This document shows, one piece after another, positions 29,917 to 49,471 of a stretch of DNA of 64,000 bases. The translations under genes and the position numbers were made by a program. Under the pieces are notes generated by a model. That model was not told where the DNA came from and searched no databases. It worked only from the letters and a program-made list of their open reading frames with translations. This DNA comes from Nakamurella sp. (GTDB taxonomy: Bacteria; Actinomycetota; Actinomycetes; Mycobacteriales; Nakamurellaceae). The stretch lies in NCBI RefSeq assembly GCF_048594475.1, contig NZ_JBMDXT010000162.1:2093-66092 (forward strand). Direction: 5' to 3'. Position 1 is the stretch's first letter. Each line of letters opens with the position of its first letter.

Positions 29917-30168
29917 CCTTTCTGCAGAACCCGGACCTTTTGACCTCAGGACGGTTGACGACCGATTGACGGTTGCACGAACCGGGGACGGACTCCGCTT
30001 GGATCGCCGGTCACCCGGGTGGGCATCAAGGGTCCGCACGGTCCGAATCCCGCGGGAGGTCGACGCCTCCCTGAACCGACATCGCGCTCCGTGGGCGACC
30101 ACAGCACAGCGGACGGAGGCCTGCGCCCCCCGGGGCCGGCCTCCGTCCGTCCTGACTCCCCCATCCGT

Positions 30169-31143
30169 TCAGGCGGCGTTGCGCCAGCTGATGAGGTTGT
30201 TGAACACCGGCTCGGTGATGCGCGTGCCGTGATTGTTGGTACTGTGCGGCGAGCTCCCGTGGACGCCATAGGCGTGGATGGCCATCGAGCATTGGCCGAC
30301 GCAGAACGACGATCCGGCCGCCCGGTTCTGGTACACCGGCGATCCACTCATCCCACCGATGGTGTCGTTCTGGTAGAAGATCTGCCGATCCTGCGTGACC
30401 CGGACCTGATCGGTCGAACGCCACAGGGTGCCGAATGCCTTGTCACCGGGGTAGCCGGAAATCGTCGTCGGCAGGCCGGTCAGCGAGGCCGACTGCCACC
30501 AGAAGCCGAACCAGCCGGTCGAGTTGCCGACGGTGCAGTTCAGCTTGAGAGCACCGTAATCGTAGCGCTCGTCACCACTGCTGACCCACCCGCTGACGCT
30601 GTGCAGACGCCTCGCGGTGCAGGAACCGTAAGGAATCGATGCGCCGTTCCGTCCGGGGTACACCCGGAATGTCCCGCCGTAGAAGGCACCGGTGCCGCCC
30701 GGCGCCACGCAGTGACCGGCGGTGGCGACGGTGTTGGAATTGATCATCCAGCCCGTGCACCAACCGTTTCCGTCCCGGGTGATATGGACGATCGCCCGGT
30801 ACGGAAAGCTCGTCGTGGCCGTGATCTGCACCCGGTTGTCCGCCCCGATGACGGATTCCTGGCCATTCTCGGCATGCTCGACGGTGGTGCCGCTTTCGGC
30901 CGGCGGAGCACTCTCCGTGCCCTTCACGGTCACTCCCGTACCGGCGAAGGAGTTGACGCCACGGAGATTGGTGCTGAATTCGGGTGCGGTCGAGGTGGAG
31001 CCGTCACTCGCGACGGCCGTGTTCGGGTCGTTGCTCGGCTTCGGCTTCGAGCCGGCCGATGCCGGGCTCACCGTCATGACCAAGGCGGCACAGACGGTGA
31101 TCGCGGCGGTGGCCGCCGCGGTGATCGTGCGCAATCGCTTCAT
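30169..31143 (-). CDS. Secreted trypsin-fold serine protease (S1, Glu-endopeptidase-like)
   Basis: Signal peptide ending PASA. Catalytic triad contexts: TAGHC, DYGALKL, GGMSGSP. Confidence 0.9.
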   Translation of the reverse strand: MKRLRTITAAATAAITVCAALVMTVSPASAGSKPKPSNDPNTAVASDGSTSTAPEFSTNLRGVNSFAGTGVTVKGTESAPPAESGTTVEHAENGQESVIGADNRVQITATTSFPYRAIVHITRDGNGWCTGWMINSNTVATAGHCVAPGGTGAFYGGTFRVYPGRNGASIPYGSCTARRLHSVSGWVSSGDERYDYGALKLNCTVGNSTGWFGFWWQSASLTGLPTTISGYPGDKAFGTLWRSTDQVRVTQDRQIFYQNDTIGGMSGSPVYQNRAAGSSFCVGQCSMAIHAYGVHGSSPHSTNNHGTRITEPVFNNLISWRNAA

Positions 31144-31377
31144 CGCTCGTCAACTCCGATAGTAGGTTTCTGCACAGATTGGGAGATCATCGGACCTGGC
31201 GGTGCGCCGGTCCGGGGCACCGAGCCCGGCCCGGCGGTGACGTTCACCGGGCTGCGCCTGTCCCGCGAAGGGGCGCGGCGGCCCACGGGACGCCACCACG
31301 GGGCGGTGAGACTTCGTCATCTGGTGTCCGATCCATCAGTTCAGTGCCGGTCATCGACCGGCCACCCCTCACTCGTC

Positions 31378-31416
31378 GGCCTGCGCCGGTCGTCCGTCGC
31401 GCCCTGGGCGCAGGCC
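31378..31416 (-). terminator. 10-bp perfect inverted repeat GGCCTGCGCC-N19-GGCGCAGGCC
   Basis: Read directly about 65-105 nt downstream of the stop of the 357-aa gene (minus strand). A second hairpin, CCGGGCC/GGCCCGG, lies closer to the stop. Confidence 0.35.
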
Positions 31417-31481
31417 GGTTCGGGGCAGGTCGTCTCACCGATGCGCCGGGCCGAAGGGCGCAGGCCCGGGACCGGAATTCC

Positions 31482-32555
31482 CTATGCCTGGCTCGTCCCG
31501 GCCGAGTCGTCGCTCGGCAAGGTGGCGTACTGCATGTCCGGAACGTCGGCGACCTTCGCCATGGTGTTGATGCTGACGTGCGGCCACTTGATGCGACCCG
31601 GTCCACCGTCGAACCGCGGGAAGAAGTCGAGTTGGACGACCTGGGCGTACTGCAACAGGAACGTCGGGCCTCCGTGCTCGTCCCGCTCGGCAAGCTCATG
31701 GATGAAGAAGGTCGCCTTCATCTCGGATGCGTTGGCCTGCTTCACGATGAACGGAATGTTCTGGATGCCGGCGGCCGGCAGCGTGGTGTCGAACTCCAGG
31801 ACGGTCGTTCGAATGATGGTGCGCCCTTGGATGGCGTCCTTCAGGAGTGCGGTCGGGTCCGTGGGGTCGAACAGACCTTTGAACGGATTGTCGTGGAAGT
31901 GCCGGTAAGGGGCGAGGTACGGGTTGGTGGGACTCTGGTCCACGCCCATGGGCAGTGCATTGATGAACGGGATGGTGGCCGCGCCGTCAACGGTGGACGC
32001 CGTCCCCAGGCCCAGAGCGGCGTCCCCGTGCGGAATCGTGGCCAGTCGCGCGATGTCGGGACCACCCTCGCCATTGGGATCGGACATGTTGAGGAACAGG
32101 CCGGGTTCATGGTGGATCGCCAGTCCCGGGCCGCCGGCCAGGCCGCTGTCCGGGAAGTCTTCAGCGGCGATCTGCGAGATCGACTGCTCGTAGTCGAGAG
32201 TGACGACGACCTGATCGCTGTTGACGGTGCTCGGCGAGGTTCCACGGACGCCGCGGTTGGGCACGGCCTTGTCGACGAGATTGAACTTCAGCTCCTCGTT
32301 GAACTGGTTCAGCAGCAGCCGGAACCCCGGCCGTGAACCTGTCGATGGGTCGGCGCCCGGACCGGCCTCGGGCACGGCGACCGGCAAGGCGACCGGCAAG
32401 GCGATCATGTTCCATCCGCGGCCCGGCAGCCCGGGAAGGTTCGCCCAGACGCCCGGAAGCTCCTTGAACGGGCCAAGGTCCCTGTCCCCGGTGACGGCGG
32501 GACCGATGGTCCGGCCGCGGAGCTCGAGTTGACGTGCGAGGCTGGCGGTCAGCAT
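31482..32555 (-). CDS. Hypothetical 357-aa protein, possibly nitrobindin/lipocalin-like beta-barrel
   Basis: ATG 32555 preceded by AAGGAG-N6. LPGVWAN..GRGWNMIALP...NEELKF...LDYEQ...IHHEPGLF recalls the nitrobindin/THAP4 heme-binding barrel pattern. Assignment is tentative. Confidence 0.75.
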   Translation of the reverse strand: MLTASLARQLELRGRTIGPAVTGDRDLGPFKELPGVWANLPGLPGRGWNMIALPVALPVAVPEAGPGADPSTGSRPGFRLLLNQFNEELKFNLVDKAVPNRGVRGTSPSTVNSDQVVVTLDYEQSISQIAAEDFPDSGLAGGPGLAIHHEPGLFLNMSDPNGEGGPDIARLATIPHGDAALGLGTASTVDGAATIPFINALPMGVDQSPTNPYLAPYRHFHDNPFKGLFDPTDPTALLKDAIQGRTIIRTTVLEFDTTLPAAGIQNIPFIVKQANASEMKATFFIHELAERDEHGGPTFLLQYAQVVQLDFFPRFDGGPGRIKWPHVSINTMAKVADVPDMQYATLPSDDSAGTSQA

Positions 32556-32729
32556 GATCGACTCCTTGACGGATAAGGGATCTCGTCCCGACCGGGAATC
32601 GCTCGGCGGCTCGTCCAAGCGGCTCGATCATGGTTGGTCGAGGTGATGAATGCCGGCGACGCTCCCGGTTGCCTCATCGAGATTCGTCCTTTGGCTAGTC
32701 GGGACTCTCCAAAGATGTCGGCTTTTCGC

Positions 32730-32735
32730 TATAAT
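32730..32735 (+). promoter_or_regulatory. TATAAT -10-like hexamer upstream of the LysR gene
   Basis: Perfect TATAAT 40 nt upstream of ATG 32775, in an A+T-rich divergent spacer. No convincing -35 box seen. Confidence 0.3.
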
Positions 32736-32774
32736 GTCCAATAAAGTCCGACCAGCCTTGCGATCAGGATTCTG

Positions 32775-33701
32775 ATGGACCACTCGATCGATCTGGACCT
32801 CGTCAGGACCCTGGTCGAGGTCCACCGGACGGGGAGCATGACGGCCGCGGCGGTCCGGCTGGGGATGTCCCAGCCGGCGGTGACCGCACATGTGAGAGCG
32901 CTCGAGAAACAACTCGGTCGAGTGCTTTTCGTCCGCCAACCGCGCGGTGTGACGGCCACTCCCTTTGCGGAGATGATCGCTGGTGAGGCCACGCCGCACG
33001 TCGACGCGCTCGACCGTCTGATCTCGGCGCCGCCGCCTGACCGGGACCCGGTGGCCGGGCATGCGATCGCGATAGGCGGGCCCGCAGAGTTCTCGACGGC
33101 GTATGTCGTGCCTGCCCTTGCGCCATTGGTGGCGCGGGGTCTGAGTGTGCGCTTCACCCTCGGCCTGCCAGAGGATCTGGTGGAGTCGCTGATCGCCGGG
33201 CATATCGACCTGGCGATCCTGACGGTACCGGTGCGACGGCGGGGGGTCACGCTGACGCCGCTGTGCGACGAGGAGTTGATCTTGATCGGGGCACCGCCGA
33301 GGGCGGCGAGATTGGCGCCCCGGCTGGCGAGCAATCCCTCGGACGAGGAACTCACCGCGGAGCCGCTGATCGCCTACGGCGAGCACATGCCGTTGATCCG
33401 ACGCTATTGGAACCTGGTGTTCGGATCGCGTCCCACCGGACGCCCGGCGATGGTCGTGCCGGACTTGCGGGGCGTCCTGACCGCCGTGTCAGCCGACGCC
33501 GGAATCGCAGTTGTGCCAGCCTATCTCGGTCGGCCGGCGGTCGAGCGCGGGGAGGTCGCGCGGCTGATGTCGCCGGCGTTGGCTCCGATCAACACGCTGT
33601 CGTTGGCGGCGTCCGGCCGGGCGATGGTTCAGGCGCACACCGCGGTTGTTCATTCGTTCCTGACCCAGGCAGGGCGCACGTGGGGAACGGCGACCGACTG
33701 A
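32775..33701 (+). CDS. LysR-family transcriptional regulator
   Basis: HTH LVRTLVEVHRTGSMTAAAVRLGMSQPAVTAHVRALEKQLG plus a LysR substrate-binding domain. Divergent from the 357-aa gene. Confidence 0.9.
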   Translation: MDHSIDLDLVRTLVEVHRTGSMTAAAVRLGMSQPAVTAHVRALEKQLGRVLFVRQPRGVTATPFAEMIAGEATPHVDALDRLISAPPPDRDPVAGHAIAIGGPAEFSTAYVVPALAPLVARGLSVRFTLGLPEDLVESLIAGHIDLAILTVPVRRRGVTLTPLCDEELILIGAPPRAARLAPRLASNPSDEELTAEPLIAYGEHMPLIRRYWNLVFGSRPTGRPAMVVPDLRGVLTAVSADAGIAVVPAYLGRPAVERGEVARLMSPALAPINTLSLAASGRAMVQAHTAVVHSFLTQAGRTWGTATD

Positions 33702-33713
33702 GCCTCGCCGCGC

Positions 33714-34289
33714 TCAGCTCAGCGGCAGACTGCCTCGGGAACGGGCGTCCGGATCGTCCGCCCGGTCGTCGAGAACGGCGAGGATCGCGTCGGCGAACAC
33801 GTCCGAGTCATCCGGCCGACGGCTCGTCACGATGGGTCCGTCCCTGACCACCGGCGCATCGACCCACACCCCGCCCGCGTTGCGGACATCGGTCCGAACT
33901 GACGCCCATCCGGTGAGGCGGCGGCCGCGAACGGCGTCGGCTTCGACGAGCAGCCACGGACCGTGGCAGATCGCCGCCACCGGACGATCCGCGGCGATCA
34001 TCGCGCGAAGGAATGCCATGACCCCGCGATCGATGCGGAGGCGGTCCGGCGAGTGACCGCCCGGGATCACCACCGCGTCGAAATCCGCCACCGTGGCCTG
34101 GGCGGCGCCGAGCGCCACCGGTACGACGTCGGCTCCATGCTTGCCGACGATCGACGAGTCCGCGACCGGGCCGACGATCACCGGCTCGTGCCCGGCGCGC
34201 CGGAGACGGTCGTAGGGGACGCCGAACTCCGTCTCGTCGAATCCGTCGGTCATGAGGAATGCCACGCGCCTGGCCCTGCGTCCGGTCAT
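33714..34289 (-). CDS. DJ-1/PfpI-family protein (Cys-His nucleophile elbow present)
   Basis: VAFLMTDGFDETE, VVIPGGHSPD, nucleophile elbow AAICHGPWLL. ATGA overlap with the upstream HAD gene. Confidence 0.9.
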   Translation of the reverse strand: MTGRRARRVAFLMTDGFDETEFGVPYDRLRRAGHEPVIVGPVADSSIVGKHGADVVPVALGAAQATVADFDAVVIPGGHSPDRLRIDRGVMAFLRAMIAADRPVAAICHGPWLLVEADAVRGRRLTGWASVRTDVRNAGGVWVDAPVVRDGPIVTSRRPDDSDVFADAILAVLDDRADDPDARSRGSLPLS

Positions 34290-35044
34290 GTCCGGCTCCC
34301 GAGGTCCAGCCGGCGGGCGGCCTGCTCGATCGACAGCGGTGTCACGCCCATCGTCCGGGCCTGGATCCGATGCTCCGTCGTTGAATATCCCCAGCCCGCC
34401 CAGGAGGATCCGTAGCCGGCCCCCCGCGCGTCGAACACGTTGTCCAGGCTGTCGTCCACGAGGTGGACGCGATCGCGTTCGACCTCTTCACGGGTGGCGA
34501 TGGCGGCCAAAGCGCCCAGCTTTTCGGTCCGGTCGCCGAAGACGCGGTCGGGGTCAATCTCGACGTCGAATGATCCGATCAGGTCCACCACCGACCTGAC
34601 ATCGCGGGCGGTCACGATGTAGCCGCTCCGGGCGACGGTTTCGACAAGAGGTCGAACACCGCGGTACACCTGGTGCAGGGCGAGCCACGACTCCGGTCGA
34701 TTCCGCCTGATCTGTCCTCGATAGTCGGTGACGCGGCCGATGAAGCCGGCGATCTCGCGTTCCGGGATCGTCCGGTAGACCGCGTCGAAATCCCGCCGGC
34801 TGGTGATGGTCCCGGAGGATCGGACGGCGACGAGAAAGTGCCCGAGGCTGCGGGCGTAGCCTCGAAGCTCCCGGAATCGGCGGCGGAACGGCTCGGGGAT
34901 CGACCGGAAGGTCGACGCGTCGAAATCGAGCGGGGACCACCCGTGCTGGCCCGCCCAGCTCACGGTCGCGCACTCCCGCCGGCTGTCGCAGATCACGCCG
35001 TCGAAGTCGAGGGCCAGAACGGCATCCCTGGTCACCGGCGCCAT
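34286..35044 (-). CDS. HAD-superfamily hydrolase
   Basis: ATG 35044 within ORF 34286-35281. HAD motif I LALDFDGVICDS. Late Asp motif HLVDDSLDNV. TGATG 1-nt overlap with the upstream gene. Confidence 0.8.
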   Translation of the reverse strand: MAPVTRDAVLALDFDGVICDSRRECATVSWAGQHGWSPLDFDASTFRSIPEPFRRRFRELRGYARSLGHFLVAVRSSGTITSRRDFDAVYRTIPEREIAGFIGRVTDYRGQIRRNRPESWLALHQVYRGVRPLVETVARSGYIVTARDVRSVVDLIGSFDVEIDPDRVFGDRTEKLGALAAIATREEVERDRVHLVDDSLDNVFDARGAGYGSSWAGWGYSTTEHRIQARTMGVTPLSIEQAARRLDLGSRT

Positions 35045-35601
35045 CACGATGCGATTCTGCGGGGGGCCGTCGCGACGCGTTCCGTTTCGTGCAGGACTGC
35101 CCGCATGAACGTGCCGACGTGACCGTAGTAGGAGCACGTGATGATGTTCCCGTCCACCACCACCTCGGCGTCCTCGACCAGCGCTCCGGAATTCACCATG
35201 TCGTCGCGCAAGCCCGGGTAGGCGCACGCCCGGCGGCCCTTCATCACCCCGGCCGAGATCATGATCCACGGACCGTGGCACAGGCCGGCGACGATCTTGC
35301 CCTGCTCAGCCATCGCCCGCACGAAGGCCAGGACGGTTCGGTCCTGGCGAACGCGGTCCGGGGCCTCGTGTCCCCCGGTGAGGACGACCAGGTCGTACGT
35401 CGCCGGATCGAGGTCGTCGAACGAGATCAGTGGCGCCGCCGTCTTGTCCATGGGCAGCGGGACCCCGTACTTGCCGGCCACGGCGCCCGCGGCTTTGGTG
35501 GCCACGTCCACGTGATGGTGCGCCTCGCGCAGACGGTAGTAGGTGTAGACCACGTCGTGGTCCTGGAAACCCGGGCCGGTGATGATGACCGATCGAGTCA
35601 T
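35044..35601 (-). CDS. DJ-1/PfpI-family protein (Cys-His nucleophile elbow present)
   Basis: ATG 35601 preceded by GGAGG-N6. VVLTGGHEAPD, AGLCHGPWIM. ATGA overlap with the upstream cupin gene. Confidence 0.9.
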   Translation of the reverse strand: MTRSVIITGPGFQDHDVVYTYYRLREAHHHVDVATKAAGAVAGKYGVPLPMDKTAAPLISFDDLDPATYDLVVLTGGHEAPDRVRQDRTVLAFVRAMAEQGKIVAGLCHGPWIMISAGVMKGRRACAYPGLRDDMVNSGALVEDAEVVVDGNIITCSYYGHVGTFMRAVLHETERVATAPRRIAS

Positions 35602-36395
35602 GGGTTGCCTCCGATGGCAGATGAGGTGGACAGGTCCCGGTGTCCCGGCGCCTGGTCGGCACGGGAGCGGGTGATGGTGAGATACAGGCCGTCGTGCTCG
35701 GCCGCGGTGGGCACGAGCCACCCCGGCAGGACCACGACCGTGTGGTTCAGTGCGGTGGCGATGTCGAGCGACACGGCGAACGCCAGCTCGAGGCAGGGAC
35801 GGCTGACCAGGTCGAGGCCGGCTCTGATGGTGAACTCGAAACCGTCCAGCGATGCGTTCTTGCGCAGACGCCCGCCCGGAATGAGCGCGGACGCCTGCAG
35901 CTCCGGAATGGAGGCGAGGCGTTCGGTCTCGTACTGAGTTCCGGTGCGACCGTAGCGGTCGTGCGATCGGACGAGATCGAGTTTGTTCCTGGGCACTTCC
36001 ACCTCGATCAGGTCCAGGGCCCCGTCCCCGGCGTTCCGCGTGCCGTGGAAGACACCCGGCTCGAGAATCACGAGGTCTCCGGCCGACACCGTCTGCGCAC
36101 CCTGCAGCGTCCCGAGGTGGGCCGAGCCGGCCAGGCAGAGCAATGCGGTCAGTTTGCGCGGATGGCAATGGGTCGAGGTTGCCTCGCCCGGATCAAGGCG
36201 CAGCTTCCAGACGTCGTAGAGGTCGTCAGAATACACCCGGAACTCGTGGCCCCACGGCTTCGGGATCAAGTCGTTGAGGTAGCGGTGGTCCGGTAGGTCC
36301 ACCTGCTCGGCCCGCAGGGCCGTCGATGCGGTCCGCAGAGACGTTTGCAGAGTATCGAGGTCGCGCGGTGAGCGCGAATACCGGGTCGATCCCAT
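35598..36395 (-). CDS. Cupin-domain protein (type II mannose-6-phosphate-isomerase-like cupin)
   Basis: Last 265 codons of ORF 35598-37946. ATG 36395 follows GAAGGA. KPWGHEFRVY. Cupin motif 1 STHCHPRKLTALLCLAG. Motif 2 GDLVILEPGVFHGTRN. Confidence 0.8.
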   Translation of the reverse strand: MGSTRYSRSPRDLDTLQTSLRTASTALRAEQVDLPDHRYLNDLIPKPWGHEFRVYSDDLYDVWKLRLDPGEATSTHCHPRKLTALLCLAGSAHLGTLQGAQTVSAGDLVILEPGVFHGTRNAGDGALDLIEVEVPRNKLDLVRSHDRYGRTGTQYETERLASIPELQASALIPGGRLRKNASLDGFEFTIRAGLDLVSRPCLELAFAVSLDIATALNHTVVVLPGWLVPTAAEHDGLYLTITRSRADQAPGHRDLSTSSAIGGNP

Positions 36396-36436
36396 GTCGT
36401 TCCTTCGTGAGCGTCGGGTTTGCAACGAGCTCCGGT

Positions 36437-37105
36437 TCAGGCGGCCGCCAACCGCTCTCGGGTGTCGATGAGCAGGGACATGGCGTGTGGCACGGAAGCC
36501 GTGTTCTGCGCCGTGATGACCCCGGCGTCGGACATCACGTGCGAGAGCCAGTTCGGCCCGGCACTGTAGTGAGCGCCCGCTGCCCTGAGACGATGCTCCG
36601 TGGAATCGATCCCGATGCAGTGGTGGCCGAGGGCTCGATCCTCCGCGGAGCTGCGCCCGGTCATTCGCAGACCGGCGATCCGCGGAATGCCGTCGGGTCC
36701 GACGACCTGTGCCAATGCGGCGGCGCCTTGGTCGATGGCGACGACCGTTCGGCCGGCGGACAGGGCCCGGTCGAGCATTCGCACGAGCCGCTCGTCGGTA
36801 CGAAGGTCGACCAGAACCCCGGCACCGCCCAGGAGGACGTACGCCTCGAAGTCGCGATCGAGGTCGGGGAGCCCGACGCCGGTGGCAGCGATGTCGCGGG
36901 CACCCGACCATTCCTCCGACAAGCTCCCGGAATGCACCGGGACGGGGCCGCCCGACGGCGACGCCAGCGTCATCTCCAGCCCGGCTTCGACGAGTGATCG
37001 GTGCACCATGCCGAGTTGGGTCGCAGAGACGCCGGTGGACCCGTCGAGGTCGTGGTCGTCGCCGACGATCGAGCACGACGTCGCGACGACAAGCGTTGTC
37101 ATCAT
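36437..37105 (-). CDS. DJ-1/class-I glutamine-amidotransferase-like protein lacking the nucleophile Cys
   Basis: ATG 37105 preceded by AGGAAGG-N9. Hsp31/DJ-1-like layout (TTLVVATS.., YVLLGGAG). The elbow reads VAIDQGAAAL instead of xxxCHGP. Confidence 0.7.
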   Translation of the reverse strand: MMTTLVVATSCSIVGDDHDLDGSTGVSATQLGMVHRSLVEAGLEMTLASPSGGPVPVHSGSLSEEWSGARDIAATGVGLPDLDRDFEAYVLLGGAGVLVDLRTDERLVRMLDRALSAGRTVVAIDQGAAALAQVVGPDGIPRIAGLRMTGRSSAEDRALGHHCIGIDSTEHRLRAAGAHYSAGPNWLSHVMSDAGVITAQNTASVPHAMSLLIDTRERLAAA

Positions 37106-37165
37106 CAGCAGTTGCCTTCCTGATCGCATTCTGGTTCGGATGAACGCCCGGACCTCGTCCGAGGG

Positions 37166-37831
37166 TCAGGCAGCGGCCTGGTCCGCCGCTTCCTTCCGCT
37201 TCTCGATGAGAGTGATCAGGTCGTGAAGCGGCTTGGTGCCCGCACCGATGATCAAGGCCGTCCCCAGGACCTCCATCCAGAAGTACGGAACCGGGATCCC
37301 GACGGTGGACAGCAGGTAGAAGCCGAACGAACCGCTCGCCAGCGCGGCCAGGCCGGTGGCCAGACCCCAGAAGAGGATGGTCTTCTCGGCGGTTCGACGG
37401 GCGTCCTTGGCCTTGGCCCCGGCAGCGGACTTGACCGCCTCGGCGACCTCCGCCTCGCCGATCGACGGGTCGGCGGCGGCCATGCGGGCAGCCTGCATCG
37501 TCGTGAGTGCCGCGCTCCTTTCCTCGTCCCCGATCCCGAGGAACAGGGCGACCGGCTCGAGGAGCCGCTCCAGGGCCTGAGCGCCGACGAAGAAGACAGC
37601 GAAAATGGTCAGTCCCTCGACGAGGGCCGGAGTGGTGGCGGGTGGAAAGGTGGTGTGCGGCAGGAACTCCGACGCGACGAACACGCAGGCAGCGACGAAA
37701 GCGCCCGCGATGAGCACGACGGCCCATGTCGGACTCGTTGGCTCGGTCGAGCTTTCGCTGAACGGGGCCGCGACGATGCTCTTGTCGTACGGGTCGGTGG
37801 TCCGGTTGATGACGGAAACGGTGGCGACCAT
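37166..37831 (-). CDS. Membrane protein (4 TM helices with a central Ala/Lys-rich segment), first gene of the DJ-1 operon
   Basis: ATG 37831 preceded by GGAGG-N6. Helices: WAVVLIAGAFVAACVFVASEF, GLTIFAVFFVGAQAL, ILFWGLATGLAALASGSFGFYLL, MEVLGTALIIGAG. Confidence 0.7.
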   Translation of the reverse strand: MVATVSVINRTTDPYDKSIVAAPFSESSTEPTSPTWAVVLIAGAFVAACVFVASEFLPHTTFPPATTPALVEGLTIFAVFFVGAQALERLLEPVALFLGIGDEERSAALTTMQAARMAAADPSIGEAEVAEAVKSAAGAKAKDARRTAEKTILFWGLATGLAALASGSFGFYLLSTVGIPVPYFWMEVLGTALIIGAGTKPLHDLITLIEKRKEAADQAAA

Positions 37832-38500
37832 GTGATTCCTCCAGGGGCCGTCGAGGTGGCTGGTGCATGGGTGCGGGACGGGGAGCCCGGCCGGACGGCG
37901 TGTCCGTCGGGGCCCCGGGGTCAGCGGGAAATTGGATTCCGCCCATTCCGGGGGCGGTACCGAGTTCCGGGCCGGCGTAGCCCGGAGGTGCTGGTCGTAC
38001 CGAAAAGCAGATGCTCGAGCGGGCCGATTTCCGCTCGGACGGGAAACGGCCCGGCCGGGTGCGCTCAGAGAGCAGCCCGAATGTTTCCGGGGCCGGCCCG
38101 GGCGGTCATCACCGGTGGTGGCTCAGCTGTCCATCGCGTGCCTCCAGTAAGAACCCGACGCAGCCGGTCGGCTCACTCGATCGTGTCGAACCATCCGGTC
38201 GAGGTCATCATTTGTCCGGATGATCCCTTCCGTCCGACCCCGGGAGGACGGAGCGCATCACCCTCGCCGCGCGATCGGTGGTCCTCACCGATCACACAGT
38301 TCGTTCCGCATCGATTCCCAGCTCCAACGGCGCGCCGTGCGCCCGCCGTCCTACCGGAGCACGACGGACAGGTCCTTCCTGCGGACGACGCGCTCGCGGC
38401 CCGACCTCGCGAGTATTGGTCCGATCGACGAGCGTGGATCGCCCTGCGAATCCAATGAGCCTTGTGCGACGATTAATCCTTGGTGTCCGATTGGGGGTTC

Positions 38501-41158
38501 ATGATGAGCAATGCGATGAACTGCGTCCCGAAGGCCAATCAGCCGGACGACCGCGGTGAATGGGTCACGGGCCGGTACCTGGCCGACAACGGACGCTGGT
38601 TCGTCCAGCTGCGGATCGGCGCCGGCCGACGTCCGACGGTCAGCGCCGACCTTCAGGTCCGTGACGGGTCGAGCCTGATCGAGCTGTCGATGCTCGCTCG
38701 ATCGCCGGACGCGGCCCCTGCTCGGCCGGGCGGCACCCAGGACATCGAAAGCGACGCTCCCGAGGAGGCGTGGCCGCAGCCTGAACGGGAAGCCGTCTTC
38801 GCCGACGGACGGGGCGCGCTGTCGTCCGGGAAGGTCCGCGTCGACATCGTCGACCACGGGCTTGTCGACGTGACCTTCACTCTCGGACGGGGCCTGGCCG
38901 GGCTTGTCTCCGGGTATTCGGTGACCCTCAGAGCCGCCCGGGTGAGCACGGCACTGCGCGACGTCGGGCTGGAGGTCGAGTACGAGTCGGGCGTGGAGAG
39001 GTATTTCACCGATGAACTGCACGACGCCAAGTCAGCTCTCGAGAAGGTTTTGCATCAAGCGGGTCTGGACATCCACGAGGTCGGTCGGCGCACCGTCATC
39101 GACAGTCCCCCCGGCGGGGCATGGTCGGCGTCGGACGTCTTCACCGCCCTGAACAATCAGCTGCGAGCCGCGGCCCAATCCCCACTGACATCGCCGGTGT
39201 GGGAACTGCACCTGCTGCTGCTGTCCAAGAGCAGCCGGGACGGCCTGCTGGGCATGATGTTCGATTTCGCCGATGATCTGCCTCGACAGGGCGCCGCGGT
39301 ATTCGTCGAAGCGGTCCACGACAGTTGCCCGGACAAGAAGGATTCACCGACGCGAATCCTGGCCACGGCGGTGCACGAACTCGGACACTGCCTCAATCTC
39401 ACCCACCGCTTCACCCGCGACGTGGGGCGGGCGGACTCCCTGTCGTTCATGAACTACGACTGGGTCTATCGGGGTGGGCGGCACGCCGACCAGTACTGGC
39501 GGGATCGGCGCGACCCACTGTCGGAGGATCCCGGTCCGAACGCTCCCCGGAGACGGACGTTCGACGACGACGAGCTCGAGTTTCTGCGCCACGGACCTCG
39601 CTTCGAGGTCATCCCGGGTGGTGCTCCATTCGGATCGGCCCGCTACTGGATCACCGCCGATGGGGGGTCGGCCGATCTACCGGTCCATCCCGATCCAGGT
39701 CTTCACCTGTGGCTGACTCCACCGGTCACCGGCACCCGGTTCAACTATCTGGACCCCGTCTTCCTCCAGGTCTCACTGCGGAACAAGGGTGGATCAGCTC
39801 GCCGCATGCCCCGGTATGCGCTCGACACGAAGGCGGGCCTGCTCGACATCGTCATCCGACGGCGCGCGGCGCCGGGACGGGGTGCCGCTTCGGACGGTGA
39901 CCTCTTCGTGCCGTTCATGCGCCGCTGTTTCAGCGTCACCGGCTCCCAGGAGATCGTGCTCCAACCGCGGGAGTCCCTGCACAACAACGTGAATCTGACG
40001 TTCGGCTCGGCCGGCTTCCCGCTGGCGGAGCCGGGGGAATACCTGATCACGCCCTTGCTGACATTGTTCGACGTTGATCCGAGCGTCGAGGGGCGACCGA
40101 GCCTGACGGTGGTTCAGGGTCCGGAACTCGCCATCACCATCGACCCCCCGGACACCCGGGCCCGCGAACGCGATGCCGACCTCGTCCTGCGCAATGACGT
40201 GGGCGCCAGCTTCGCGCTCGGCGGCGCGGACTGTCTGCTGGCGGCGACCGAGACGCTGCAGATGCTCGTCGAGCGACGCGATCGTGACGATCGGGGCGGT
40301 CGCCCGGACGGGCTGCGGGCCGCCGCCGCCCGCGTGGTGGGGCTGAACGCACTTCGCCACGATCGGGGCGGCGAGGCGGCCCGATGGCTGAGAGTCGCCA
40401 CCGAGCCGACGTCGCTGGCGACGTTCGACCCGCACACCGCCGAGCACACGAGACGGATGGCCGCGAAGCGAACGGCCGCGCGGAGAACCGACACGGCCTA
40501 CCTGGACCTGACGGTGCAGGTCACCGAGGAGACCCGCCAGCGCAAGCGTCCGGTACCGGGCGTTCTCGTGTCGCAGGACGTCAAGATGTCCAGCGGTCGC
40601 CCGGGGAGCCTTCTGGTGGTCGACGCCACCACATTCGCCGGCGATCCGGTGGTCCGCGCCCAGGCCGTCGTCTCGACCGACGAGGGCAGCACCGAGACGG
40701 TCACTGTGCGGCAGATCGACGTCTTCGGCGCCGTCGGCGACAGCGGTCGGACCACCTCCGGTGACGGGGGACCCGGCCCGGTGGCCGTCGCCTATCTGGA
40801 CCGGGTCCTGACCGGCGGCGGGTCGGCCGCGAAGGTCGATCTCGGGGTCCTTCGCTCCGATGTGGGACGGACGGCGGACGGTGTGCGAGGCGTCCTGACC
40901 CGGGCCGGCCTGGAAATCCCATCTGCGGATGACGATCTCGACGCCGGCCCGTTGCGCGTGGTCGCCGCCGCGGGCCACGCAGCACCCTGGGACGGCAATG
41001 ACGACGGGTCCGCCCCGGCCCAGGAGGTGCGCAGCGAGTCCTACATCTGGCACAAGGCGGCCTGGAAGTGGTGCTGGTTTCTCAACATCTGTCACGAGGG
41101 GCCGCCCGACCCGTACGCCAGCGGTGAGTCCGGCCCGGACCGCCCCCCGGACGCATGA
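38501..41158 (+). CDS. 885-aa multidomain protein with metzincin-type HExxHxxxxxH motif and no signal peptide
   Basis: ORF 38480-41158; ATG 38501/38504 follow GGGGG. HELGHCLNLTH at 39374-39406, then SFMNYD. Hydrophilic N-terminus. C-terminal WKWCWFLNIC at 41066-41095. GC3-rich throughout. Confidence 0.85.
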   Translation: MMSNAMNCVPKANQPDDRGEWVTGRYLADNGRWFVQLRIGAGRRPTVSADLQVRDGSSLIELSMLARSPDAAPARPGGTQDIESDAPEEAWPQPEREAVFADGRGALSSGKVRVDIVDHGLVDVTFTLGRGLAGLVSGYSVTLRAARVSTALRDVGLEVEYESGVERYFTDELHDAKSALEKVLHQAGLDIHEVGRRTVIDSPPGGAWSASDVFTALNNQLRAAAQSPLTSPVWELHLLLLSKSSRDGLLGMMFDFADDLPRQGAAVFVEAVHDSCPDKKDSPTRILATAVHELGHCLNLTHRFTRDVGRADSLSFMNYDWVYRGGRHADQYWRDRRDPLSEDPGPNAPRRRTFDDDELEFLRHGPRFEVIPGGAPFGSARYWITADGGSADLPVHPDPGLHLWLTPPVTGTRFNYLDPVFLQVSLRNKGGSARRMPRYALDTKAGLLDIVIRRRAAPGRGAASDGDLFVPFMRRCFSVTGSQEIVLQPRESLHNNVNLTFGSAGFPLAEPGEYLITPLLTLFDVDPSVEGRPSLTVVQGPELAITIDPPDTRARERDADLVLRNDVGASFALGGADCLLAATETLQMLVERRDRDDRGGRPDGLRAAAARVVGLNALRHDRGGEAARWLRVATEPTSLATFDPHTAEHTRRMAAKRTAARRTDTAYLDLTVQVTEETRQRKRPVPGVLVSQDVKMSSGRPGSLLVVDATTFAGDPVVRAQAVVSTDEGSTETVTVRQIDVFGAVGDSGRTTSGDGGPGPVAVAYLDRVLTGGGSAAKVDLGVLRSDVGRTADGVRGVLTRAGLEIPSADDDLDAGPLRVVAAAGHAAPWDGNDDGSAPAQEVRSESYIWHKAAWKWCWFLNICHEGPPDPYASGESGPDRPPDA

Positions 41159-42372
41159 TGACCAGGCACCCGGGCGCCCCGTCACGGCTGCGGTCAGTCG
41201 GTCGGCCGCCGCCGTGGAGCGACATCGGGCTGGCGACCGTCCTGTTCGTGGTGGATACGCTGGTGTTCTCGTCGATCACCGTGGTCAGCCAGGGCGGCGT
41301 CCCGGCGCTTCTGCTGAGCATCGGGGTCTTCGCACCGCTCGCGTGGCGGACGATCGCACCCGTGCGGGTCTTCTTCGTCGTCTGGTTCTTCACGGTGTCC
41401 GCGGCGCTGGTCGTCCCGGAGCTGAGGCCGGTGCTCGCCCTCCTGGTCGCCACCTACACCATGTCGAGCAGGACGGACTTGCGGACATCACTGCTGGCAC
41501 CCGCGCTCGCCGTCCCGACCGGAGGTGTGATCGCGGTCAGCGCGGAGCTCGATCAGAACCCCGAGATGCAGGCGTGGACCATCGCCGTCAGCGTCGGCGT
41601 GCTCGTCGGCCTGCTCAATCTCGCGCCGTGGCTGCTCGGCCGATGGGTCTACGCAAGCCGATCCGCGGTGGCGGCTCTCGAACTGGCTCGACAACGCGAA
41701 GCCGAACAGGCCCGGGTGGAGGAACGCCGGCAGATCGCCCTGGAACTCCACGACATCATCTCGCACTCCGTCACCGTCATGGTGCGGCAGGCCGACGGCG
41801 CCCGCGCGGTCCTCGGAGGCGACCCCGCCGCGGTCGCCAATTCCCTCGAGCTGATCGCGAAGGTGGGTCGTGATTCCATCGGCGAGTTGCGACGTCTGCT
41901 CGGTGTGCTGACCGATGGAACGCTCGCGCCGGTCGCGAGTGAGGCCGCCGGACTCGCCGATCTGACCACGGTGATCGACGACGCCGAGCGGGATGGGCTG
42001 CGGGTACGCCTGCAGGTCAGTGGCCGCCAACCGCCCGTGCCCGACAGTTTCGAGCGCACCGTCTTCCGGATCGTTAAGGAAGGTCTGGTCAACGCCCGCA
42101 AGCACGGCGGGCATGGCAACCGGGTGACCGTGCAGATGTTCTGGAGCGACAGCGTTCTCGTCCTGACGATCGCCGACACCGGCGGGCAACCCGACTCCGA
42201 CGCCTCGTTGTCGACGGGGAACGGTCTGAACGGATTGCGGGAACGAGTCCGGGCGAGCAATGGTCGGCTCGACGCCGGGCCGGGCCCGGACGGGGGCTTC
42301 GCCGTGACCGCGACCCTTCCGATCCCGCCGACGGCCACGCCGGTGACGACGGCGGGAGGCAGCCAGCCGTGA
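41155..42372 (+). CDS. HisKA_3-type sensor histidine kinase with multi-TM N-terminus and no large external loop
   Basis: ATGA overlap with the upstream gene. H-box QIALELHDIISHSVT. HATPase motifs KEGLVNARKH, ADTGG, GNGLNGLRERV. About 5 closely spaced TM helices. Confidence 0.9.
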   Translation: MMTRHPGAPSRLRSVGRPPPWSDIGLATVLFVVDTLVFSSITVVSQGGVPALLLSIGVFAPLAWRTIAPVRVFFVVWFFTVSAALVVPELRPVLALLVATYTMSSRTDLRTSLLAPALAVPTGGVIAVSAELDQNPEMQAWTIAVSVGVLVGLLNLAPWLLGRWVYASRSAVAALELARQREAEQARVEERRQIALELHDIISHSVTVMVRQADGARAVLGGDPAAVANSLELIAKVGRDSIGELRRLLGVLTDGTLAPVASEAAGLADLTTVIDDAERDGLRVRLQVSGRQPPVPDSFERTVFRIVKEGLVNARKHGGHGNRVTVQMFWSDSVLVLTIADTGGQPDSDASLSTGNGLNGLRERVRASNGRLDAGPGPDGGFAVTATLPIPPTATPVTTAGGSQP

Positions 42373-43061
42373 CGGTGCGCGTGCTGGTGGTCGACGATCA
42401 CGCGCTGATCCGCACCGGCCTGGCGATGCTGTTGAACGCCCAGCCTGACATCCAGGTCGTCGCCGAGGCCCGGGACGGAGCCGAGGCGATCGCCATGGCC
42501 GCCGAGCATCAGCCCGACGTCGTCCTCATGGACGTCCGGATGCCCGGGACCGACGGGGTCACCGCCACGAGGCATCTTGTCCAGGAGCCCGACGATGTCG
42601 ACCACCTCGTCAAGGTGATCATCCTGACGACCTACAACGCCGACGACGCCGTCTACGCCGCGCTCCGCGCCGGGGCATCCGGGTTTCTGCTCAAGGACGC
42701 CGAGCCGGACGAGCTCATTCGCGCCGTCCGTGCGGTCGCCGCCGGCGACGGGTGGCTCGATCCGTCCGTCGCCCGGCGGTTGATCTCCGAGTTCCGTTCC
42801 CGCCCGGACACGAACCTGGCGCCGTCGGACGCACTCGCCCAGCTCACTGCGAGAGAGCGTCAGGTGCTCATTCTCATGGCCCACGGGCTGACAAACGACG
42901 ATCTCGTCGAACGTCTCACCGTCGAGATGACGACCGTCAAGACACATGTCGGACGAATCCTGATGAAACTGGCCGTCCACGATCGCGCGCAGGCGGTCGC
43001 AACCGCCTATCAGCACGGACTGGTCCGACCCGGTGATCCCCCGCCCCGCTATGGCGGGTAA
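42369..43061 (+). CDS. NarL/LuxR-family response regulator
   Basis: GTGA overlap with the kinase gene. Receiver motifs VLVVDDHALI, PDVVLMDVRMPGTDG. HTH LTARERQVLILMAHGLTNDDLVERLTVEMTTVKTHVGRIL. Confidence 0.95.
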   Translation: MTVRVLVVDDHALIRTGLAMLLNAQPDIQVVAEARDGAEAIAMAAEHQPDVVLMDVRMPGTDGVTATRHLVQEPDDVDHLVKVIILTTYNADDAVYAALRAGASGFLLKDAEPDELIRAVRAVAAGDGWLDPSVARRLISEFRSRPDTNLAPSDALAQLTARERQVLILMAHGLTNDDLVERLTVEMTTVKTHVGRILMKLAVHDRAQAVATAYQHGLVRPGDPPPRYGG

Positions 43062-43090
43062 CCCGACGGTCGACGACCCCGCCCGATCGG

Positions 43091-43567
43091 CTAGGCCCGG
43101 GCCTGCAGCACGACCACCCCGATGATGACGATGACGAAGGCGGCGACCGCCCAGATCGCCACGATCACCGTGCGGTCGGCCCCGCGGAGCGCCGGGGCGA
43201 CGTTCGCCAGCGAGTGCGGCGCGATGCACGCCAGGGTGGGGTTCTGCGGGTCGTGGTAGACGTCGACCAGGGTGCCGACCCGCGGGGTGCCGGCCGCCCG
43301 GATCCGCGAGGTGAAGGTGACCTCGCGCCCGTCGACCGTCCGGTAGGTGATGACGGGCCGGCGGATCCGCTGCATCGTGCCGTCTTTGGCCTTCGCCCGG
43401 CGGCCGTAGGACTGCTCGTCGACCACGACGCCGCTGGCCGGCAGCCACCCGGAGGGCACCTGCGGGATCGACCGCGACCGTGTGGAGTACCGGACCTGGC
43501 GGGTGGCGAACGACGCGGCGAGCAGGATGGGTACCGCCGCCAGGAGGAGGCTCAGCCAGTCGGGCAC
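43091..43567 (-). CDS. DUF3592-like membrane protein
   Basis: GTG 43567. N- and C-terminal TM helices flank a beta-rich domain (PVITYRTVDGREVTFTS...VGTLVDVYHDPQNP). Confidence 0.75.
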   Translation of the reverse strand: MPDWLSLLLAAVPILLAASFATRQVRYSTRSRSIPQVPSGWLPASGVVVDEQSYGRRAKAKDGTMQRIRRPVITYRTVDGREVTFTSRIRAAGTPRVGTLVDVYHDPQNPTLACIAPHSLANVAPALRGADRTVIVAIWAVAAFVIVIIGVVVLQARA

Positions 43568-44403: not shown

Positions 44404-45393
44404 ATGGCCCGCTCCAGCGACACCGGCGACCCGATCGAGCTGACGGTCGGCGAGCGCACCGTGCGCGTCACCAACCCGCTGCGCGTCTACTTCCCCGAGA
44501 CCGGCGCGACCAAGCTCGACCTGGCGCACTACTACCTGTCGGTCGGCGACGGCATCGTCAACGCCCTGCGCGAACGGCCGTGCATGATGCACCGGTTCCC
44601 CGAGGGTCTGGCCGGCGAGAAGGTGCACCAGAAGCGGCTTCCCCGCGGCGCACCCGACTGGGTGCAGACGGTGAAGGTCTTCTTCCCCCGGTACCGGCGG
44701 ACCGCCGACGAGCTGTGCGTCACCGAGCTGGGCAGCGTGGTCTGGGCGGTGCAGATGTCCACCGTCGAGTTCCACCCGTGGAACTCGCGGCGGGCCGACA
44801 CGGAGAAGCCCGACGAGTGGCGGATCGACCTGGACCCGATGCCCGACTGCGACTTCGGCCGGGTCCGGCGGGTCGCCGGCGTCGCCCACGAGGTGCTGGA
44901 CGAGCTCGGCGCGGTCGGCTGGCCCAAGACGTCCGGCGGCCGGGGCCTGCACATCTACGTCCGCATCCCGCCACTCTGGGGTTTCGCCGACGTGCGGCGG
45001 GCGGCGCTGGCCTTCGCCCGCGAGGTCGAGCGCCGCGCCCCGGCCGACGTCACCACCGCCTGGTGGCGCAAGGATCGGGACCCGGCGATGCTCTTCGTCG
45101 ACTACAACCAGAACGCCCGCGACCACACCATCGCCAGCGCGTACTCGGTGCGCGGGACGCCCCGCGGGACCGTCTCGACCCCGGTCCGCTGGGACGAGAT
45201 CGACGACGTGCTGCCCGACGACTTCACCATCGCCACCGTGCCGGCGCGGTACGCCGAGCTCGGCGACCTGCACGCCGGCATCGACGGCGCGCCGTTCGAC
45301 ATCACCCCGCTGCTGGAGTGGGCCGACCGCGACGAACGGCAGGGTGCCGCCGATCCGGGCGAACCGGACGCCGTCGACCTCGACGGCCGCTGA
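44404..45393 (+). CDS. Stand-alone LigD polymerase/primase (PolDom) protein of the NHEJ family
   Basis: ORF 44404-45393. Motifs: LTNPLRVYFPETGATKLDLAHYY, VEFHPW, WRIDLDP, KTSGGRGLHIYV, VDYNQNARDHTIASAYSVRG. Confidence 0.85.
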   Translation: MARSSDTGDPIELTVGERTVRVTNPLRVYFPETGATKLDLAHYYLSVGDGIVNALRERPCMMHRFPEGLAGEKVHQKRLPRGAPDWVQTVKVFFPRYRRTADELCVTELGSVVWAVQMSTVEFHPWNSRRADTEKPDEWRIDLDPMPDCDFGRVRRVAGVAHEVLDELGAVGWPKTSGGRGLHIYVRIPPLWGFADVRRAALAFAREVERRAPADVTTAWWRKDRDPAMLFVDYNQNARDHTIASAYSVRGTPRGTVSTPVRWDEIDDVLPDDFTIATVPARYAELGDLHAGIDGAPFDITPLLEWADRDERQGAADPGEPDAVDLDGR

Positions 45394-48271: not shown

Positions 48272-49471
48272 TCAGCGGACGAGCGCGAGGGTCGCGCGGG
48301 CGATCGCCAGCTCCTCGTTCGTCGGGACGACCATCACCGTGACGGGCGACCCGTCGGCCGAGATGACCCGCGGCTGCGGCGATCGCACCGCGTTCCGCTC
48401 GGGATCCAGGACCAGGCCGAGGCCCTCGAGCCCGGCCAGCACCCGGGCCCGCACGGTGGCGGCGTTCTCGCCGACCCCGGCGGTGAAGGTGACGACGTCG
48501 GCGCCGCCGAGCACCGCCAGGTACGCGCCGATGTACTTGCGCACCCGGTGGCAGTAGACGTCCAGGGCCAGGGCGGCGTCGGCGTCCCCGCCGTCGATCA
48601 AGGCGTCCAGATCACGGAAGTCGGAGACGCCGGACAGCCCGAGCATGCCGGAGCGCCGGTTGAGCAGATTGTCGATCTCGTCGATCGACAGCCCGCCGGT
48701 CCGGGCCAGGTGGAACACCACGCCGGGGTCGAGATCGCCGCTGCGGGTGCCCATCACCAGACCCTCCAGCGGGGTCAGGCCCATCGACGTCTCCACCGCC
48801 CGGCCACCGGCGACCGCGGACACCGACGCCCCGTTGCCCAGGTGCAGCACGATCTGCCGCAGGTCGGCCAGGTCCCGGCCGAGCGCCTGCGCGACCTGAC
48901 CGGCGACGTACTGGTGGGACGTGCCGTGGAAGCCGTAGCGCCGCACCTGGTACCGCTGCGCCACCGCGCGGTCGATCGCGTAGGTCGCGGCCGCGGCCGG
49001 CAGGTCCCGGAAGAACGCGGTGTCGAACACCGCCACCTGCGGCACGTCCGGGAACGCCAGCATCGCCTGCTCGATGCCGATGGCGTTCGCCGGATTGTGC
49101 AGCGGCGCCAGCACCGACAGGTCCTTGATCGCGGCGAGCACCGCGGCGTCGATCAGTGTCGGGTCGCCGAACCGCGACCCGCCGTGCACCACCCGGTGGC
49201 CGACGCCGGCCAGCCCGGACCGCGCGATCGGCCGGCCCGCCCGGTCGAACAGGTCCTTCATCACCTCGATGGCGGCGGCGTGGTCGGCGATCTCGCCGGT
49301 GAACTCGAACTCCTCGCCGTCCTGCCGGTGGGTCGCCCGGCCCGGCTCGGCGCCGGCGACGCCGATCCGTTCGATCAGGCCGACCGTCACCGCCTGGCCC
49401 TCGTCGGGATCGATCAGCTGGTACTTCATCGACGAGGAACCGGAGTTCACCACGAGGATCGGATACCGCAT
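48272..49471 (-). CDS. ackA: Acetate kinase
   Basis: ATG 49471 within ORF 48272-51316. Motifs: ILVVNSGSSSMKYQL, GHRVVHGG, FDTAFF, YGFHGTSH. 1-nt TGATG overlap with pta. Confidence 0.95.
   Translation of the reverse strand: MRYPILVVNSGSSSMKYQLIDPDEGQAVTVGLIERIGVAGAEPGRATHRQDGEEFEFTGEIADHAAAIEVMKDLFDRAGRPIARSGLAGVGHRVVHGGSRFGDPTLIDAAVLAAIKDLSVLAPLHNPANAIGIEQAMLAFPDVPQVAVFDTAFFRDLPAAAATYAIDRAVAQRYQVRRYGFHGTSHQYVAGQVAQALGRDLADLRQIVLHLGNGASVSAVAGGRAVETSMGLTPLEGLVMGTRSGDLDPGVVFHLARTGGLSIDEIDNLLNRRSGMLGLSGVSDFRDLDALIDGGDADAALALDVYCHRVRKYIGAYLAVLGGADVVTFTAGVGENAATVRARVLAGLEGLGLVLDPERNAVRSPQPRVISADGSPVTVMVVPTNEELAIARATLALVR

Follow-up and report, generated by a model that had tools for sequence, protein, structure and literature searches.

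A putative signal-less metzincin family, one clade of which carries a C-terminal module that accompanies a sensor histidine kinase

Within a 64,000-nucleotide stretch of a Nakamurella sp. contig (NZ_JBMDXT010000162.1, positions 2,093 to 66,092 of the forward strand; the whole stretch is termed here the window), a plus-strand gene at 38501..41158 encodes an 885-residue metzincin-like protein, termed here MZ. MZ is probably a catalytically competent, cytoplasmic zinc endopeptidase that founds a metzincin family and whose fused C-terminal module would be a partner of the histidine kinase encoded directly downstream, thereby coupling the states of peptidase and kinase; this reading, which draws on sequence comparisons and structural models, is held here with moderate confidence. 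Its novelty lies in the proposed metzincin family, in the kinase-associated module and in the fusion of both. In the literature searched, no paper was found that mentions DUF7134 (the membrane region of that kinase) or that describes a metzincin linked to a two-component system.

Textbooks present metzincins as extracellular proteases; a family that has four domains, lacks export signals and is widespread would enlarge the clan, and it raises the question of intracellular substrates across many phyla. Actinobacteria encode many HisKA_3 kinases that have membrane helices alone, few of which have a known input. A soluble partner module that has an invariant cysteine pair, and that occurs either standalone or fused to a protease, is a testable candidate for this missing kinase input; the fused form would be a naturally occurring case of a protease built into a phosphorelay. 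Cultured hosts are available, such as Kineococcus xinjiangensis DSM 22857, and these make the proposal directly testable.

Zinc site, predicted fold and location

The 885-residue open reading frame (ORF) proposed in a first-pass annotation of this DNA is borne out by its translation, by a coding-type frame pattern (GC at codon positions 1/2/3 of 0.72/0.52/0.83), by homologues and by an AlphaFold model. A GGGGG run precedes the ATG by 3 nucleotides (5 nucleotides measured from the centre of the run), and an in-frame TAA occurs at 38474-38476, eight codons upstream.

The predicted catalytic site consists of an extended zinc-binding motif, HELGHCLNLTH (39374..39406, residues 292-302; H292, E293, H296, N299 and H302), which is followed by R303 and then by the putative Met-turn motif SFMNY (39443..39457, residues 315-319; S315, M317 and Y319), M317 being located 15 residues past H302. 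The metzincin spacing with asparagine in place of glycine, the HRF that leads toward the Met-turn and the distance to the methionine are exactly as first annotated. The pattern HExGHxxNLxH occurs in all 120 listed homologues, and across an alignment of 83 sequences the invariant residues are H292, E293, G295, H296, N299, L300, H302, S313, S315, M317 and Y319; hence the three histidines and the glutamate, whose conservation had been suggested as a check, are all retained, as are the Ser, Met and Tyr of the Met-turn. The patterns HELGHxLNLxH and S[WF]M[NQ]Y persist even in relatives of merely 26-30% identity, among them members from Chloroflexota, Actinomadura and Acidobacteriota, the spacer between third histidine and methionine being 15-24 residues in the distant clades. 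The family signature is, in other words, HExGHxLNLxH, a 15-residue spacer and an S-x-M-x-Y Met-turn, together with an arginine after the third histidine in the clade of MZ. Given this conservation, the HExxH of MZ is not a chance occurrence.

Because the glutamate, the three histidines, the methionine and the tyrosine are invariant across distant phyla, an active hydrolase is to be expected, and MZ is accordingly predicted to bind zinc and to carry out proteolysis. MZ has seven cysteines in total, none of which is conserved within the catalytic domain or the N-terminal domain; for want of conserved catalytic-domain cysteines, disulfides are unlikely. An insertion of about 17 residues that is private to MZ (RDPLSEDPGPNAPRR; residues 334-352, nucleotides 39500-39556) lies in the lower subdomain past the Met-turn; it is without counterpart in the aligned homologues, and model confidence is reduced there.

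A full-length AlphaFold model built on the 83-sequence alignment (predicted local distance difference test score, pLDDT, 84; predicted template-modelling score, pTM, 0.87) suggests a core plan of about 650 residues comprising a beta-sandwich, the catalytic domain, another beta-sandwich and a helical repeat domain. The N-terminal beta-sandwich (38570..38986, residues 24-162) is all-beta by DSSP on the model and lacks a Pfam family match; its conserved residues are G24, R38, S48, D50, G110 and R153. It is possibly a prodomain-like or regulatory domain, and the invariant D50 may be a candidate Asp-switch residue. The metzincin-type catalytic domain (38987..39685, residues 163-395) is supported by the domain model, by Foldseek and by sub-threshold Pfam matches. 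It is followed by the second beta-sandwich (39686..40141, residues 396-547; assigned by DSSP on the model), whose invariant residues are N428, D442, K444, C476, N496, N498, P511 and G512, and by an all-helical, TPR-like domain (40157..40474, residues 553-658), for which TPR_4 gives weak matches in two family members and at the end of which the core of the shorter family members stops.

The metzincin fold consists of an upper subdomain with a four- or five-stranded sheet, a backing helix and the active-site helix, and of a lower subdomain with a C-terminal helix. In the catalytic domain DSSP assigns, in order, a strand at 189-193, a helix at 210-224, strands at 235-241, 249-254 and 264-268, a helix at 279-297 and further helices up to 370. 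The segments WELHLLLL, LLGMMF and GAAVF, which had been read from the letters as the strand pattern preceding a metzincin active-site helix, correspond in the model to the strands 235-241, 249-254 and 264-268, directly ahead of active-site helix 279-297. Both this order and the top structural matches agree with a metzincin fold, the scores of the latter being modest.

Foldseek searches with the whole model returned, from the Protein Data Bank (PDB), only GH3 glycosidases at template-modelling (TM) scores of about 0.1 plus one AsaP1 match and, from BFVD, nothing significant. Because a whole-protein search is uninformative for a five-domain protein, the catalytic domain was modelled again alone (residues 160-395; pLDDT 84). 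The top 18 matches to this model are all metzincins, rather than the non-protease fold that would have spoken against the first-pass annotation. The best is adamalysin II (1iag; E 3.7e-3, prob 0.99, TM 0.44/0.50); other high matches are 4dd8 (ADAM8), 2rjp, 1wni and 4j4m, the names including ADAMTS4, H2-proteinase, TM-1 and atrolysin C; and ulilysin, fragilysin and leishmanolysin come lower in the list. A single-sequence search of the PDB gave 0 matches, and a family profile aligned, among PDB sequences, with the zinc helices only of archaemetzincin, MMP-14, ulilysin and pappalysin (E at least 0.014). MZ reaches no Pfam or NCBIfam threshold, and the sequence on either side of the zinc motif lies outside every Pfam, NCBIfam, PADLOC and PHROGs model, in keeping with the first impression that these flanks are unfamiliar.

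An absence of export signals had also been remarked upon, and this holds for the family. The highest 19-residue Kyte-Doolittle mean in MZ is 1.16, so that there is no transmembrane segment; no hydrophobic N-terminus (0/120) and no Sec, Tat or lipoprotein signal was found among the 120 listed homologues; and no signal peptide can be hidden upstream of the MZ start, since the in-frame TAA leaves at most seven extra codons. MZ is thus predicted to be cytoplasmic. Short forms from outside Actinomycetota (L020, L024, L043 and L045; in Chloroflexota P0056, P0059, P0074 and P0083) have a hydrophilic, helix-prone N-terminal extension of 60-70 residues (for example ...QLEREQQMLQSLERPLTE...ALRFL), which is not a signal peptide.

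A first homologue search yielded 230 proteins, which are called 'hypothetical' apart from a few automatic names and none of which has a precomputed Pfam domain. A genome scan using one genome per species (GTDB representatives) found 92 loci, 80 of which were kept; these span Actinomycetota, Chloroflexota, Bacteroidota, Pseudomonadota, Nitrospinota, Planctomycetota, Acidobacteriota, Myxococcota, Desulfobacterota and one cyanobacterium. Most members are short forms of 615-700 residues that end after the helical domain. No kinase lies beside the short form at the roughly 70 short-form loci of the genome scan or at two others looked up individually.

The C-terminal module and the associated kinase

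MZ itself is a long form. About 220 extra C-terminal residues are present in 19 of the 83 aligned proteins, MZ included; in MZ they form a module (40478..41110, residues 660-870), recognised from the long-form clade and by profile search, that is modelled as a beta-sandwich (665-766) followed by helices (781-860), and that has neither a Pfam family match nor a transmembrane segment. Neighbour-joining on the shared core groups the 19 long forms, without exception, in one actinobacterial clade, the sole other leaf of which is a protein truncated by a contig end; the extension was therefore acquired a single time and has been retained since, although core identity has fallen to 34-48%. The module ends in a W-C-x5-C motif (W857, C858 and C864; 41069..41092) or, more generally, W-C-x5/6-C: alignments of fused and standalone modules alike show both cysteines to be invariant and the tryptophan to be nearly so.

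Directly downstream of MZ on the same strand are genes for a sensor histidine kinase (41155..42372; DUF7134, HisKA_3 and HATPase_c by Pfam, with transmembrane segments) and for a NarL/LuxR-type response regulator (42369..43061; Response_reg and GerE by Pfam, with an NCBIfam NarL score of 162 bits that is under that model's cutoff). The MZ stop and the kinase ATG share four nucleotides (ATGA), and the kinase stop and the regulator GTG likewise share four (GTGA), both overlaps having been read directly in the sequence. The gene after the regulator (DUF3592; 43091-43567, minus strand) is convergent, so that the operon ends at the regulator and consists of three genes. The DUF7134 membrane region of the kinase comprises about five transmembrane helices within residues 21-165 and is without a large extracytoplasmic loop. 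The first-pass annotation had described MZ as fused to a kinase-coupling domain; this stands inasmuch as the C-terminal module tracks the DUF7134/HisKA_3 kinase, but the kinase itself is a separate gene joined to MZ by a four-nucleotide overlap. The interpretation given there is supported in part, its regulated proteolysis within signalling being a hypothesis.

Examination of gene neighbours, as that annotation had advised, found the same kinase and regulator directly downstream and on the same strand in 8/8 long-form loci (the window, P0006, P0007, P0011, P0057, P0033, P0039 and L091), the kinases being 39-53% identical to one another. In three of the eight, the window not among them, a gene for an extracytoplasmic-function (ECF) sigma factor follows the regulator. 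ECF-type genes (Sigma70_r2/r4) next to the regulator were noted at L004 (12763-13395) and at the P0033, P0039 and P0136 loci. At L007 a decayed partner kinase (8697-9662), whose C-terminal half is frameshifted, lies near an ISL3 transposase.

When a profile of the module was compared with 1.84 billion representative proteins, the 34 matches consisted of long-form C-termini and a few standalone proteins; a word-indexed search with this profile gave three proteins. The standalone modules are about 187 residues long (P0138, P0142, P0143 and P0144), with P0139 at 240 residues and P0136 a 410-residue tandem duplicate, and they align end to end with the extension, keeping the W-C...C tail. The gene after P0142 (L089) starts within a four-nucleotide overlap and matches, in register, the N-terminal membrane region of long-form kinases (phmmer E 1.6e-9 and 4.6e-8); after P0143 (L090) only N- and C-terminal kinase remnants persist (1073-1391); after P0136 come a 434-residue gene, a NarL-type regulator and an ECF sigma factor; and after P0138 there is a 51-residue fragment resembling the start of DUF7134.

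The converse was examined at 80 metagenome HisKA_3 kinase loci, 35 of which encode a DUF7134-like membrane region, 31 of these with at least 700 nucleotides of upstream sequence. The module is upstream in one of the 31, and this one is the closest relative (42% identity), whose membrane region gives an E-value of 2e-36; for all other DUF7134-like kinases it is 1e-8 or weaker. The genomic association between module and kinase is strict in both directions. To judge from these comparisons, the extension is an autonomous module that is evolutionarily bound to one kinase subclade.

Proposed coupling, its alternatives and the genomic surroundings

The module may be a cytoplasmic partner, either an input or a regulator, of an otherwise sensor-less membrane kinase. 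This is proposed because the kinase is without a sensor domain and because, in comparable HisKA_3 systems, an upstream gene controls the kinase. The fusion would then tether a metzincin protease to the kinase partner and couple the states of the two enzymes, and this in one of several ways: occupancy or activity of the protease might be reported to the kinase; the protease might cleave the module, the kinase or the regulator, self-cleavage of the module changing kinase output; or the kinase-bound module might gate the protease. Output would pass through the NarL-type regulator and, in several relatives, through the adjoining ECF sigma factor as well. From the overlap of stop and start codons at both junctions, the three gene products would be made stoichiometrically, in fixed proportion. 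Contact between module and kinase, like the direction in which information would flow, is predicted from gene order and co-inheritance. Standalone modules, which come without a protease, retain the cysteine pair; this argues for a role in signalling (a thiol, redox or metal site, perhaps) and not for protease latency; a cysteine switch is thus an unlikely main role for C858/C864.

A more specific version of the second possibility is a protease-gated two-component system, in which the metzincin, on a cytoplasmic cue, would cleave its own module, or the kinase or regulator to which this module binds, and thereby switch the kinase. The invariant cysteine pair may then sense a thiol, redox or metal cue, and the arrangement would be a cytoplasmic counterpart of anti-sigma-factor proteolysis whose output goes to a phosphorelay, joined in several relatives by an ECF sigma factor. 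We regard this version as rather doubtful.

Several observations weigh against the coupling of a cytoplasmic metzincin to the kinase. The Foldseek scores are modest, E being 3.7e-3 at best and TM about 0.5. The contigs that carry standalone modules are short, and of the genes downstream of these modules one is the 51-residue fragment and another, that of 434 residues, is without a Pfam match on record. Short forms work without a kinase, so that the protease may have a housekeeping role apart from signalling. Accessory domains of the beta-sandwich type are found more typically in secreted proteases, and export by a non-classical route is conceivable. Finally, adjacency and co-inheritance are no proof of physical interaction: control of the protease gene by the two-component system, or control in the opposite direction, might be all that links them.

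This last point leads to a regulation-only explanation, in which a shared operon lets the two-component pair control the protease or be co-induced with it, and in which the module serves the protease (through substrate binding or oligomerisation) and not the kinase. Autoregulated operons that contain a target gene are indeed common; however, the module also occurs standalone, without a protease, and there too it is placed upstream of a kinase of this type, which implies that its partner is the kinase and not the protease. Moreover, the short-form loci examined never have a kinase, and the stop/start overlaps favour stoichiometric co-production. The regulation-only explanation is therefore considered unlikely. 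The kinase could instead be an envelope-type sensor of the products of, or of the envelope stress associated with, a secreted or surface metzincin exported non-classically. An extracellular location is usual among metzincins (PMC9848320, PMC11674741), accessory beta-sandwiches typify secreted proteases, and at 10 loci an ABC exporter gene immediately precedes the short form. Yet none of the 120 listed homologues has a Sec, Tat or lipoprotein signal and the window leaves no room for one, disulfides are unlikely given the lack of conserved catalytic-domain cysteines, no secretion tag is common to the family across its Gram-positive and Gram-negative phyla, and the kinase has no sizeable extracytoplasmic loop; on balance, a secreted MZ seems quite improbable.

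The remaining alternative concerns catalysis: the zinc site might belong to a non-protease scaffold, such as a peptide- or metal-binding sensor or a small-molecule amidase built upon a metzincin fold. The arginine after the third histidine and the very short lower subdomain are unusual, and cytoplasmic zincins with mainly regulatory roles exist, MtfA being an example. Nevertheless, invariance of the general-base glutamate, the three histidines, the methionine and the tyrosine across distant phyla is the pattern of an active hydrolase, and pseudo-enzymes usually lose the glutamate, which makes the scaffold highly improbable. A cytoplasmic peptidase whose fused module is a kinase partner remains the reading preferred here.

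The short forms have no convincing conserved neighbour. The exporter mentioned above (ABC_membrane plus ABC_tran, about 600 residues) occurs in several phyla, at L015, L017, L019, L065, L045, L053, L055, L057, L072 and L085, and its position could be due to chance or to a link with peptide export. A distant clade of 26-30% identity (L076, L077, L078, L084, L085 and L087 from Actinomadura/Actinocorallia; L064-L075 from Chloroflexota) has preserved both zinc motif and Met-turn. Its members in Actinomadura have a longest ORF, counted from the first possible start, of 920-960 residues, with about 250 extra N-terminal residues that have no Pfam match and for which the true start is uncertain; in the distant Chloroflexota a conserved 181-residue protein without a Pfam match is encoded next downstream (L072, 4478-5023).

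Regarding regulatory DNA, no k-mer is shared above chance upstream of six long-form loci, no sigma-70-like promoter was found, and terminator-like sites are at the level of shuffled sequence (3 vs 1.7). At L004 (~7860-7920), about 80-140 nucleotides upstream of the Kineococcus xinjiangensis long-form gene, there are five tandem copies of the 12-mer CATCACCCGCGA, which might serve as an array of regulator sites or be no more than a simple repeat.

GC content in the window is high (0.72-0.77); the stretch 27000-43100 has a GC content of 0.66-0.71 and a third-position value (GC3) of 0.82-0.85, and its flanks have values of 0.73-0.77 and 0.94-0.97, respectively. From composition, this lower-GC stretch, which includes the metzincin-kinase-regulator operon, may be an acquired island; no tRNA was found in the window and no integrase was seen in the stretch. 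Also within it are a trypsin-like protease (30169-31143, minus strand), a LysR regulator (32775-33701), two DJ-1/PfpI genes (33714-34289 and 36437-37129, both minus) and a cupin fragment inside an ORF at 35598-37946 (minus). Ordinary core genes are found nearby, namely those for a LigD primase-polymerase domain protein (44404-45393) and a phosphate acetyltransferase (PTA_PTB, AAA_26 and DRTGG; 49471-51537, minus). PADLOC and PHROGs searches gave no match for MZ, so that an origin in a defence system or phage was set aside. The sequencing runs that hold the locus are DNA runs of one straw metagenome only.

Comparison with known metzincins and kinase systems

From its sequence and its modelled structure, MZ is concluded to represent a new, unannotated family of the metzincin clan, since no described family combines an Asn-type zinc motif, an arginine after the third histidine, a 15-residue spacer and a Tyr-containing Met-turn with a lack of conserved catalytic-domain cysteines, of a prosegment cysteine and of a signal peptide. 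In a survey of sub-threshold Pfam matches for 24 family members, all 24 of which are below threshold, M43 was the commonest (20/24 members; best E 0.0033), followed by M10 (11/24), Reprolysin_5 (10/24) and Astacin (1/24). In ulilysin, a pappalysin, 52 residues separate the third histidine from the methionine. The clan consensus, HExxHxx(G/N)xx(H/D) (PMC11674741, PMC12237041), matches HELGHCLNLTH at residues 292-302, and asparagine at the glycine position is a documented variant of lower pappalysins (PMC12237041); hence the asparagine of MZ is an accepted variant and not an anomaly.

The likeness to M43/pappalysins that was noticed at first is thus real but partial. With the lower pappalysins (M43B; ulilysin, mirolysin and cytophagalysin) MZ shares both this asparagine and a tyrosine two residues after the methionine, and ulilysin recurs in both the Foldseek and the PDB-profile lists. 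Unlike them, it has a short spacer and is without a signal peptide, a Cys-switch prosegment or a conserved disulfide pair. Pappalysins have a signal peptide, an N-terminal prosegment with a zinc-blocking cysteine, and two conserved catalytic-domain disulfides, and the lower subdomain of CPL1 is long, from H241 to M284 (PMC11674741). Membership in M43 (PF05572) was rejected: MZ scores 13.5 bits versus a gathering cutoff of 23, its N-terminus is not hydrophobic, no cysteine is conserved in its N-terminal or catalytic domain, and its spacer is 15 residues (15-24 in distant clades) versus 43-52 in pappalysins.

Adamalysins/reprolysins (M12B; 1iag and 4dd8) are the best structural matches to the catalytic model (prob 0.99-0.85, TM 0.44-0.53). 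Adamalysins are secreted, have disulfides and a cysteine-containing Met-turn, and conserve HExxHxxGxxHD, that is, an aspartate after the third histidine; the His-to-Met spacer of adamalysin II is about 14 residues and thus similarly short to that of MZ (15). MZ has, however, Asn and not Gly, Arg and not Asp, and S-x-M-x-Y and not C-I-M; its accessory domains are different, it has no Cys-switch prodomain, and identity is 13-18%. Hence, given R303 after H302, the SFMNY Met-turn, and the lack of conserved cysteines and of a signal peptide, assignment to M12B was rejected, the overall fold alone being alike.

The S-x-M-x-Y Met-turn is common to MZ and to astacins and serralysins (M12A and M10B), in which the tyrosine is a zinc ligand or 'tyrosine switch'; such a switch, two residues past the Met-turn methionine, is described for astacins (SIMHY; PMC9848320) and for lower pappalysins (PMC11674741). 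Astacins have HEXXHXXGXXHE followed by XXRXDRD, with SIMHY as their Met-turn (PMC9848320). MZ differs from these families in lacking the family-specific glutamate (astacins) or proline (serralysins) after the third histidine, in its much shorter spacer and in its predicted cytoplasmic location; with R303 in place of glutamate and no EXXRXDRD motif, it was not assigned to M12A, with which it has S-x-M-x-Y alone in common.

Archaemetzincins give the best profile match in the PDB and NCBIfam (E 0.014), involving the zinc helix only. To our knowledge, no export signal has been reported for archaemetzincins, so that cytoplasmic metzincins are rare but not unprecedented. Archaemetzincins are single-domain proteins of about 160-195 residues, unlike the multi-domain MZ. 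Their signature, HEXXHXXGXXHCX4CXMX17CXXC, includes a Cys4 zinc finger (PMC3427221); membership (M54, NF033823) was rejected inasmuch as MZ has none of these four cysteines and scores 15.3 bits in NCBIfam versus a cutoff of 145.

For the proposed role of the module, the closest parallels are two-component systems in which a further gene acts upon the kinase. In LiaFSR and VraTSR the gene just upstream (LiaF or VraT) controls kinase activity. In the HbpS-SenS-SenR system of Streptomyces the upstream-gene product, HbpS, likewise controls the kinase (PMC4991794). As in these systems, the operon described here encodes a membrane kinase without a real extracytoplasmic sensor and a NarL-type regulator, with a co-varying gene directly upstream. 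Homology to LiaF/VraT (a membrane protein with a DUF2154-type domain) was rejected, the module having neither a Pfam match nor a transmembrane segment. Unlike LiaF, VraT and HbpS, to which it has no sequence kinship, the module is soluble, cytoplasmic by prediction and marked by an invariant cysteine pair; and, in a fusion of which no counterpart was found in the literature searched, it is joined in the long-form clade to a 650-residue metalloprotease.

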